Origin: Escherichia coli
GTDB lineage: Bacteria; Pseudomonadota; Gammaproteobacteria; Enterobacterales; Enterobacteriaceae
Length of the DNA stretch: 64,000 bases
Strand: one strand, 5' to 3'
NCBI RefSeq assembly: GCF_001677475.2
Contig: NZ_CP015229.1
Part shown: positions 37,468 to 37,724 of the stretch, in pieces
Layout of the letters: every line of letters begins with the position of its first letter
Position numbering within the stretch: position 1 is the first letter of the stretch
Notes under the pieces: model-generated
The model's database searches: none
Seen by the model: only the letters and a program-made list of their open reading frames with translations
Told to the model about the DNA's origin: nothing
Position numbers and translations under genes: made by a program

Positions 37468-37641
37468 TAAGGCTTGATAACTCCCCCAAAATAGTTCGAG
37501 TTGCAGAAAGGCGGCAAGCTCGAGAATTCCCGGGAGCTTACATCAGTAAGTGACCGGGATGAGCGAGCGAAGATAACGCATCTGCGGCGCGAAATATGAA
37601 GGGGGAGAGCCCTTATAGACCAGGTAGTACACGTTTGGTTA

Positions 37642-37667
37642 GGGGGCCTGCATATGGCCCCCTTTTT
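37642..37667 (+). terminator. attenuator-like hairpin in the rpsB-tsf spacer
   Basis: GGGGGCC tgcatat GGCCCCC followed by TTTTT. Confidence 0.65.
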
Positions 37668-37724
37668 CACTTTTATATCTGTGCGGTTTAATGCCGGGCA
37701 GATCACATCTCCGAGGATTTTAGA

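Follow-up and report, generated by a model that had tools for sequence, protein, structure and literature searches.

An ERIC element and a probable leaky terminator in the rpsB–tsf spacer of Escherichia coli

Introduction

The spacer between rpsB, which encodes ribosomal protein S2, and tsf, which encodes EF-Ts, raises an unusual question in the 64,000-nucleotide stretch of an Escherichia coli chromosome (contig NZ_CP015229.1) that we analysed here and refer to as the window. Part of the spacer reads like the XhoI–EcoRI–SmaI portion of a cloning polylinker, and a GC-rich hairpin with a T-run stands downstream of it. Is this block a native part of the operon or a trace of engineering, to what kind of element does it belong, and what does the hairpin do between two co-transcribed genes?

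The answer for the block leads to the ERIC elements, also called IRUs, which were reportedly described by Sharples and Lloyd in 1990, by Hulton, Higgins and Sharp in 1991, and by Wilson and Sharp in 2006. ERICs are about 127 bp long (PMC3184786), carry a 7-bp terminal repeat (PMC2229807, Table 1), and are intergenic multicopy elements whose transcripts form long stem-loops (PMC2229807, PMC3184786, PMC10969869). According to the summaries of De Gregorio et al. (2005) given in PMC3184786, PMC2229807, and PMC10969869, ERICs located at the 3' ends of genes in Yersinia modulate mRNA decay via RNase E; this effect depends on the orientation of the element and is known only from Yersinia. A full-text literature search, with the primary ERIC papers outside its reach, returned nothing relevant on a connection between ERIC and the rpsB–tsf locus.

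Results

The rpsB–tsf locus

According to the list of open reading frames, glnD and map lie on the minus strand of the window and are followed by rpsB, tsf, and pyrH on the plus strand, which is the E. coli order. The rpsB gene (36742–37467, plus strand), assigned from the same list and from the annotation in matching E. coli records, ends with the stop codon TAA at 37465–37467, and a second in-frame TAA follows directly at 37468–37470. The tsf gene, likewise taken from the list, occupies 37725–38576 on the plus strand; its Shine–Dalgarno sequence GAGGA (37713–17) and its start codon ATG (37725–27) together span 37713–37727 on that strand, and the CGAGGA at the Shine–Dalgarno position shows no variation across the 58 species in our spacer alignment.

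Between the two genes lies an intercistronic spacer of 257 nt (37468–37724, plus strand), which we call the long allele and which is complete in 4094 of the 5426 E. coli genomes searched. It is 100% identical to positions 190600–190856 of E. coli K-12 MG1655, so that window positions can be obtained by subtracting 153,132 from K-12 positions. The window strain is not K-12, with 11 differing positions over 2.2 kb, and the identical spacer is also found in E. coli chromosomes from humans, dogs, cattle, chickens, and water. The view that the segment is native-looking, which had been put forward from the sequence alone, is borne out by the perfect identity to MG1655 and by the wild isolates from humans, dogs, cattle, and water.

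An ERIC element after the rpsB stop codon

The 127 bp at 37481–37607 (plus strand) are an ERIC/IRU miniature inverted-repeat element, as judged from the repeat family, the matches to ERIC-PCR primers, the fold, the covariation, and the absence of the segment from a short allele. The element is bounded by 7-bp terminal inverted repeats, CTCCCCC at 37481–87 and GGGGGAG at 37601–07, and its apical loop is predicted at 37542–45. Folding of the 132 nt at 37478–37609 gave −66.3 kcal/mol, as compared to −33.0 ± 3.3 kcal/mol for shuffled sequences (z = −10.2). In a BLAST search at sensitive settings against 5426 complete E. coli genomes, the same 132-nt segment was placed at a median of 10 positions per genome (range 2–16), taken over 5425 genomes. 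The five other copies that we retrieved are all intergenic (yjbE–yjbF, hsdM–hsdR, mobH–ardC, ybhJ–ybhI, and pgk–fbaA), and they align with the window element over the full length.

Using the ERIC-PCR primer sequences given in PMC3696847, we found that the ERIC2 primer matches 37544–37565 at 19 of 22 positions and that the reverse complement of ERIC1R matches 37522–37543 equally well (19/22); the copy between ybhJ and ybhI matches both primers at all 22 positions. The consensus hairpin of the family, derived from 12 copies, contains 38 pairs, and compensatory changes were present in 22 of them. Identity between the window copy and the other E. coli copies that we compared is 71–77%. Its flanks, which read ...GATAA before CTCCCCC on the left and AGCCC after GGGGGAG on the right, show no visible TA target duplication.

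In the predicted minimum free energy (MFE) fold, the stem of the element is lengthened by host sequence: GGCU at 37471–37474 (plus strand), which formed the left base of the first hairpin in the ancestral spacer, is paired with AGCC at 37608–37611. ERIC-free spacers carry a short GCTC-loop-GAGC hairpin inside the corresponding AAGG...CCCTT frame.

The palindromic block as ERIC core

The block that resembles a polylinker, AAGCTCGAGAATTCCCGGGAGCTT at 37516–37539 (plus strand), is the diverged core of this element, as revealed by its alignment to the family consensus CAAGnGAGTGAATCCCCGGGAGCTT. A sequence-only reading had described it as three abutting palindromic hexamers inside a 5-bp inverted repeat at 37515–37540. 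The block is there, with slightly different ends and a different internal layout: the hexamers CTCGAG (37519–24), GAATTC (37524–29), and CCCGGG (37529–34) do not abut but overlap their neighbours by one base each, and the flanking inverted repeat is 6 bp long (AAGCTC at 37516–21 and GAGCTT at 37534–39), around a 12-nt centre. Nor is the block a self-contained motif, because it forms part of the left arm and core of the 127-bp ERIC and pairs across the element, 37518–22 with 37564–68 and 37528–33 with 37554–59 in the MFE fold. T37528, the base that creates GAATTC, pairs with A37559, and this compensated change from C–G to U–A is also found in a second E. coli allele (L009) and in the copy of Entomohabitans teleogrylli. 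Only a few substitutions, including the compensated one, separate the XhoI–EcoRI–SmaI run from the ERIC core CAAGnGAGTGAATCCCCGGGAGCTT.

We also compared the hexamer chain with chance expectation. The window contains 2 chains of three palindromic hexamers at a spacing of 5–6, as compared to 1.5 ± 1.2 in first-order Markov simulations, 78% of which contained at least one such chain. Because the observed count is close to the simulated one, the resemblance of the block to a polylinker is statistically unremarkable and is a coincidence within chance expectation. The object that stands beyond chance is the larger ERIC hairpin that contains the block, not the chain of hexamers.

Long and short alleles in E. 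coli

About 1330 of 5424 E. coli genomes (24.5%), among them an O25b:H4-ST131 isolate and APEC O18, match the spacer only from its position 140 (window 37607) onward. Their spacer is 134 nt long, and the stretch 37474–37607 of the long allele, which also measures 134 nt, is replaced by 11 nt, ACGCTCGTACG. A reciprocal search with the short junction was consistent with this, giving a net length difference of 123 bp. The two alleles do not differ by a clean insertion.

The short form resembles the spacers of Citrobacter and Kluyvera nearly base for base (TAAGGCACGCTCGTTAGAGCCCTTATAGACCAGG), and most of the 80 Enterobacterales species listed, which did not include E. albertii, E. fergusonii, Shigella, or Salmonella, have a spacer of 110–150 nt with no ERIC. 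Based on these likenesses, the short form represents the ancestral architecture and the long form the one with the insertion. The absence of 37519–37536 from reference genomes had been proposed as a sign of an engineered insertion; this segment is indeed missing from about 1330 of 5424 E. coli genomes, yet naturally so. What these genomes are missing is the entire element; they have the short ancestral spacer instead, which shows a natural insertion polymorphism and not engineering.

Imported flanks were also looked for, and no excess divergence was observed near the spacer between strains with the long and the short allele. The two groups are identical over the final 180 nt of rpsB and the initial 170–400 nt of tsf, a comparison that is uninformative because both genes are so conserved.

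ERIC insertions in the same spacer in other genera

ERICs are present in the rpsB–tsf spacer of other genera as well. Two Citrobacter genomes have one after the first hairpin, with a clear TA duplication (CTTATA/TATCC...GGATA/TAGG, the slashes marking the junctions), while Serratia sp. M24T3 has one inside the first hairpin. Erwinia sp. JUb26 and a Pantoea metagenome-assembled genome also carry an ERIC in this spacer, and that of Erwinia mallotivora is in the opposite orientation. By eye, Hafnia paralvei contains a shorter ERIC-like insert, which gave no BLAST match. The insertion points differ among genera, and all of them are downstream of the rpsB stop codon and upstream of the conserved terminator described below.

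The left junction TAAGGCTTG is common to the copies of E. coli, Entomohabitans, and, in a degenerate form recognised by eye, Enterobacteriaceae bacterium LSJC7. The copies of E. coli and Entomohabitans teleogrylli share the CTCCCCC/GGGGGAG ends and the core AATTCCCGGG; they are 82% identical, which is higher than the 71–77% between the window copy and its E. coli paralogues. This likeness suggests either one old insertion or an allele transfer between genera. These features shared with Entomohabitans, together with a short allele like that of Citrobacter and Kluyvera, would support a polymorphism that is old or was transferred.

The terminator and its neighbouring hairpins

Downstream of the ERIC, at 37641–37668 (plus strand), we found a leaky intrinsic terminator with the stem AGGGGGCC/GGCCCCCU, a 7-nt loop, and a T-run, on the evidence of a terminator scan, conservation, and a 3' end mapped in K-12. 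The scan returned the hairpin AGGGGGCC-TGCATAT-GGCCCCCT at 37641–37663, followed by TTTTT at 37664–37668; the stem has 8 bp, 7 of them GC pairs, and a free energy of −17.6 kcal/mol. The hairpin and T-run noticed earlier are therefore real, and their coordinates move from 37642–37667 to 37641–37668.

Conservation of the terminator was scored by a per-sequence hairpin scan. Practically every one of the 80 Enterobacterales species listed has a GGGG(G)CC-loop-GGCCCC(C) stem with a T-run. Under a strict requirement for stem plus T-run, 71 of 81 spacers pass, and the other 10 have the same stem with only three Ts (CCCCCTTTAC). In ERIC-free spacers the terminator lies about 50 nt past the rpsB stop codon. 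RNAalifold, run on the 58-species spacer alignment, recovered only 5 terminator pairs, MAFFT having shifted the short stems.

For K-12 reads beginning at 189712, the rpsB promoter, SMRT-Cappable-seq mapped a 3' end to 190800 (Yan et al. 2018, PMC6131387, Supplementary Data 1). Through the 100% alignment, this position corresponds to window 37668, the last T of the T-run. The two data sheets stand for two conditions. On the first, 232 of 1340 reads end at 190800, 42 end within 50 bp downstream, and 906 read through; on the second, 63 of 1037 reads end at 190800, with 16 and 852 others, the 852 being taken as read-through (PMC6131387). For the second sheet, columns 7 and 8 were read as swapped, which is the only way to reconcile its figures with those of the following site, 191745. 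Termination at 37668 is roughly 8–23%, a rough figure that depends on size-selected libraries and on the swapped-column reading. A nanopore study of E. coli RNA also described the rpsB–tsf unit as terminated stepwise (PMC8848933). The proposal of an attenuating hairpin between rpsB and tsf holds up, given the K-12 3' end at the T-run with read-through and the conservation in Enterobacterales, and these data support the hairpin at 37641–37663 as a genuine leaky Rho-independent terminator. That it may set the S2:EF-Ts expression ratio, as had also been suggested, is a plausible and reasonable idea.

Two further hairpins flank the terminator. A small one, GACCAGG...UUUGGUU, is predicted by the MFE fold at 37618–37640 (plus strand) directly before it, and its sequence, AACCAGGTA...TTGGTTA, is kept in most Enterobacterales spacers. 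Another, ATCTGTGCGGT / GCCGGGCAGAT at 37677–37703 (plus strand), lies between the terminator and the tsf ribosome-binding site (RBS) and was recognised by covariation. Among 27 Enterobacteriaceae, its arms (37677–37687 and 37693–37703) are paired in 93.9% of cells, as compared to 31–43% in slid controls, and 6 of its 11 pairs show two-sided changes. More distant families have a different hairpin (TATCTC...GAGATA) in its place.

Overlap with catalogued RNA families

The Rfam family CssrA (RF02798) matches 37553–37662 (plus strand) with 136.2 bits, against a gathering score of 93, and the match takes in the ERIC's right half, then two small hairpins and the stem of the terminator. In S. flexneri 301, CssrA was reported as a northern band of roughly 110 nt, with map/rpsB given as its neighbours (PMC3071730). 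The Rfam model maps to the rpsB–tsf spacer, despite those neighbours. Its 5' 54 nt (37553–37606) are ERIC sequence, which is absent in about 24.5% of E. coli and in most of the Enterobacterales listed, and unrelated ERIC copies, as well as ERIC-bearing spacers of other genera, score with the model too. A promoter scan of 36300–38800 returned no sigma-70-like promoter. For tsf-containing units of K-12, a capped 5' end of minor abundance is listed at 190705, which corresponds to window 37573 and falls within the ERIC (PMC6131387); with it, a primary transcript would be a possible origin of the RNA. CssrA does not look like an independent conserved sRNA gene, its 5' half being ERIC and the scan of 36300–38800 having returned no promoter-like site. 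Since its 5' half is variably absent and its model scores other ERICs, we read CssrA as a stable 3' fragment of terminated rpsB transcripts, most likely generated by cleavage near the ERIC apex or the internal loops.

A second family, V_AS5 (RF02818), gave full-length alignments (129 positions) with all the ERIC copies tested, at E values down to 2e-9. The window itself scores 24.6 bits with this model, far under the gathering score of 96.

Discussion

It is highly probable that the rpsB–tsf spacer of the window is built from two known kinds of feature, an ERIC element and a leaky terminator. On this reading the ERIC sits in, or replaces, the small hairpin that came first behind the rpsB stop codon, and it is co-transcribed with rpsB, its RNA being predicted to fold as one long imperfect hairpin. 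Such an insertion may be tolerated because it occupies or substitutes for a hairpin that was already there and because the downstream series of hairpin, terminator, hairpin, and RBS is left intact. A minority of the transcripts from the rpsB promoter would stop at 37668 and yield rpsB-only mRNA, while the rest would enter tsf, and this leaky stop would leave tsf mRNA lower than rpsB mRNA. The effect of the ERIC hairpin on expression is probably modest at most. If the ERIC does act, it may follow the route proposed for Yersinia, in which a ribosome terminating at the end of rpsB, whose stop codon lies 13 nt ahead of the left repeat, would open the base of the stem and expose the A/U-rich right end of the element (GAAAUAUGAA, 37591–37600) to RNase E. 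In that case the ~110-nt CssrA RNA would represent a stable piece that reaches from inside the ERIC to the terminator, and not a dedicated regulator.

Two other explanations concern the block itself. That it is an engineered XhoI–EcoRI–SmaI polylinker left in the chromosome is suggested by the contiguity of three common cloning sites and by the absence of the segment from a quarter of E. coli genomes. We see virtually no chance of this, since MG1655 and thousands of wild isolates from many different hosts carry the identical sequence, the block aligns base for base with other ERIC cores, and the change that produces GAATTC is matched by a compensating one in the other arm of the hairpin. Moreover, AATTCCCGGG, the ends of the element, and its left junction recur in the rpsB–tsf ERIC of Entomohabitans teleogrylli, hexamer chains occur in the window at chance frequency, and the genomes without the block are devoid of the whole 127-bp element and not merely of an 18-bp linker. 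An engineered insertion is in practice ruled out by the wild isolates, MG1655, and another genus. The perfect 6-bp inverted repeat around its 12-nt centre could instead point to a site for a dimeric DNA-binding protein or to a local regulatory RNA hairpin between AAGCUC and GAGCUU. This is extremely improbable, because neither the MFE nor the centroid fold contains the local hairpin, the bases pairing across the ERIC instead, because the XhoI and EcoRI sites are absent in the other E. coli ERIC copies, and because a quarter of E. coli genomes do without the block and show no sign of a replacement.

For the downstream part of the spacer, the hairpin at 37641–37663 might only stabilise or process the RNA by stalling 3' exonucleases, without terminating transcription. 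Sequencing alone cannot separate termination from trimming back to a stable stem, and in some genera the T-run is reduced to three Ts (CCCCCTTTAC), with 10 of 81 spacers failing the T-run requirement. However, the 3' end mapped in K-12 coincides with the last T of the run directly behind a GC-rich stem, which is the canonical geometry of an intrinsic terminator, and most species have kept both the stem and the T-run; a purely stabilising role is thus quite improbable. CssrA, in turn, might be a dedicated trans-acting sRNA gene that has its own promoter in the spacer and is conserved accordingly. The Rfam match exceeds the gathering score, a band of about 110 nt was seen in Shigella, and an RNA from the capped 5' end at 190705 (window 37573) to the stop at 37668 would measure about 96 nt. 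Against this stand the 54 nt of ERIC at the 5' end of the model, missing in about 24.5% of E. coli and in most Enterobacterales listed, the scores of the model on unrelated ERIC copies, and the lack of a sigma-70-like promoter in 36300–38800. The reported 5' end is an estimate taken from the size of the band, and the table of the source paper gives no target or phenotype (PMC3071730). We regard a separate sRNA gene as unlikely and retain the reading of CssrA as a fragment of terminated rpsB transcripts.

A broader proposal is that the spacer is a recurrent landing site for ERICs in Enterobacterales, with the E. coli alleles being an old polymorphism or the result of transfer between genera. 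We put this forward only tentatively and consider it rather doubtful. The repeated landing of ERICs in one spacer across genera may be under-appreciated, as may be the fact that each E. coli allele has a counterpart in other genera, and both observations are incremental. The same holds for the overlap with Rfam, in which V_AS5 and Ysr49 (RF02766) are ERIC-like and half of CssrA is ERIC.

These results have practical consequences. A lookalike of a cloning scar is a natural repeat here, and the window should not be flagged as engineered; the rule that absence from reference genomes indicates engineering fails for mobile repeats. Annotators should be aware that CssrA, V_AS5, and Ysr49 overlap ERIC transcripts wholly or partly. 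If the ERIC hairpin alters the decay of rpsB mRNA or the S2:EF-Ts ratio, E. coli lineages would differ in expression balance, and the balance in question would be that of two essential translation genes. The natural pair of E. coli alleles, with spacers of 257 nt and 134 nt, is suited to testing the effect of an ERIC on the S2/EF-Ts balance.

Compared with known systems, the window element agrees with ERIC/IRU repeats in its length of 127 bp, its imperfect palindrome, its 7-bp terminal repeats, and its primer-matching core, as well as in being multicopy, intergenic, co-transcribed, and variable in presence among strains. It differs from them in ending with CTCCCCC/GGGGGAG, whereas most copies have ends of the TATAC type, in its divergence (71–77% identity) and the lack of a visible TA duplication, and in that the ERIC-less allele has 11 different bases in place of a clean empty site. 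Like the 3'-end ERICs of Yersinia, it lies just past a translated gene on the same transcript and has an A/U-rich stretch at its right repeat; unlike them, it is followed by a terminator 33 nt downstream. The terminator resembles other leaky intra-operon terminators, with a GC-rich stem and a U-run between co-transcribed genes and partial read-through in long reads, while it differs from internal attenuators in having no known antiterminator or ligand and appears to be constitutive. Rfam CssrA, V_AS5, and Ysr49 are catalogued sRNA or antisense families, each of which is wholly or partly an ERIC transcript. All parts of the spacer are of known kinds: an ERIC/IRU repeat, a leaky internal terminator, and a catalogued Rfam RNA.

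Transcription and leader of the rpsB-tsf operon

The 5' leader of rpsB carries a match to the Rfam t44/tff RNA at 36628-36714, with 83.5 bits where the gathering score is 44; this part of the leader is already known for its role in S2 autoregulation. The same family was also detected 5' of rpsB by Rfam search at Citrobacter, Serratia, and Erwinia loci. Further downstream, SMRT-Cappable-seq (Supplementary Data 2) lists transcription units containing tsf with starts at K-12 positions 190440, 190705, and 190794 (PMC6131387), which correspond to 37308, 37573, and 37662 in the window and lie inside rpsB, in the right arm of the ERIC repeat, and in the 3' arm of the terminator stem, respectively. 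A consensus scan of 36300-38800 found no promoter at these three starts.

Structure and variation of the spacer

Between the terminator and the ribosome-binding site of tsf, a hairpin at 37677-37703 shows clear covariation among 27 Enterobacteriaceae, and its position is occupied in more distant families by another hairpin, TATCTC...GAGATA. Among the 80 Enterobacterales loci listed, the spacer is shortened to 113-121 nt in L017, L020, L022, L023, L025, L032, L033, L036, L038, L040, and L042, which include Enterobacter, Klebsiella, Pluralibacter, Lelliottia, and Phytobacter genomes. Of the two small hairpins that follow the rpsB stop in ERIC-free spacers, these short spacers have lost the first and keep only the right half of the second; both the terminator and the pre-tsf hairpin remain in place. 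Three plasmid-labelled records in the E. coli genome collection contain the rpsB-tsf spacer and tsf, and may be mislabelled chromosomal contigs.

The tsf allele and its 3' end

At 38438-38441, tsf has four adjacent bases that differ from K-12 and three other strains (CCAAGC to CCGGCA), changing EF-Ts from ...EPSK... to ...EPAK.... Although rare, the window allele occurs naturally: a match of at least 99% is present in just 58 of 5424 E. coli genomes, pig-faeces and wastewater isolates among them. A short way past the tsf stop, the GC-rich palindrome AGCCGCCCTCAGGCGGCT (38589-38606) coincides with the centre of the known K-12 tsf terminator (191729, or 38597 in the window).

ERIC copies and annotated small RNA families

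Apart from the chain CTCGAG/GAATTC/CCCGGG inside the ERIC repeat (37519-37534), the window holds a single further chain of three palindromic hexamers, the AT-rich AATATTATTAATATATA at 4883-4899. A second ERIC copy, with 83% identity to the window copy, was found in Enterobacteriaceae bacterium LSJC7 (L016, 3401-3517), where it lies in reverse orientation 3' of tsf, within the tsf-pyrH spacer. All ERIC copies tested align over the full length (129 positions) with the Rfam family V_AS5 ("Vibrio RNA AS5"), with a best E-value of 2e-9; the matches comprise the window copy (37480-37603) and those at the compared loci L004 (1197-1320), L005 (1194-1317), L007 (1192-1315), L006, and L008. The Yersinia family Ysr49 likewise matches ERIC copies. 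Judging from these alignments, the small RNA families V_AS5 and Ysr49 appear to be transcripts of ERIC-type repeats.
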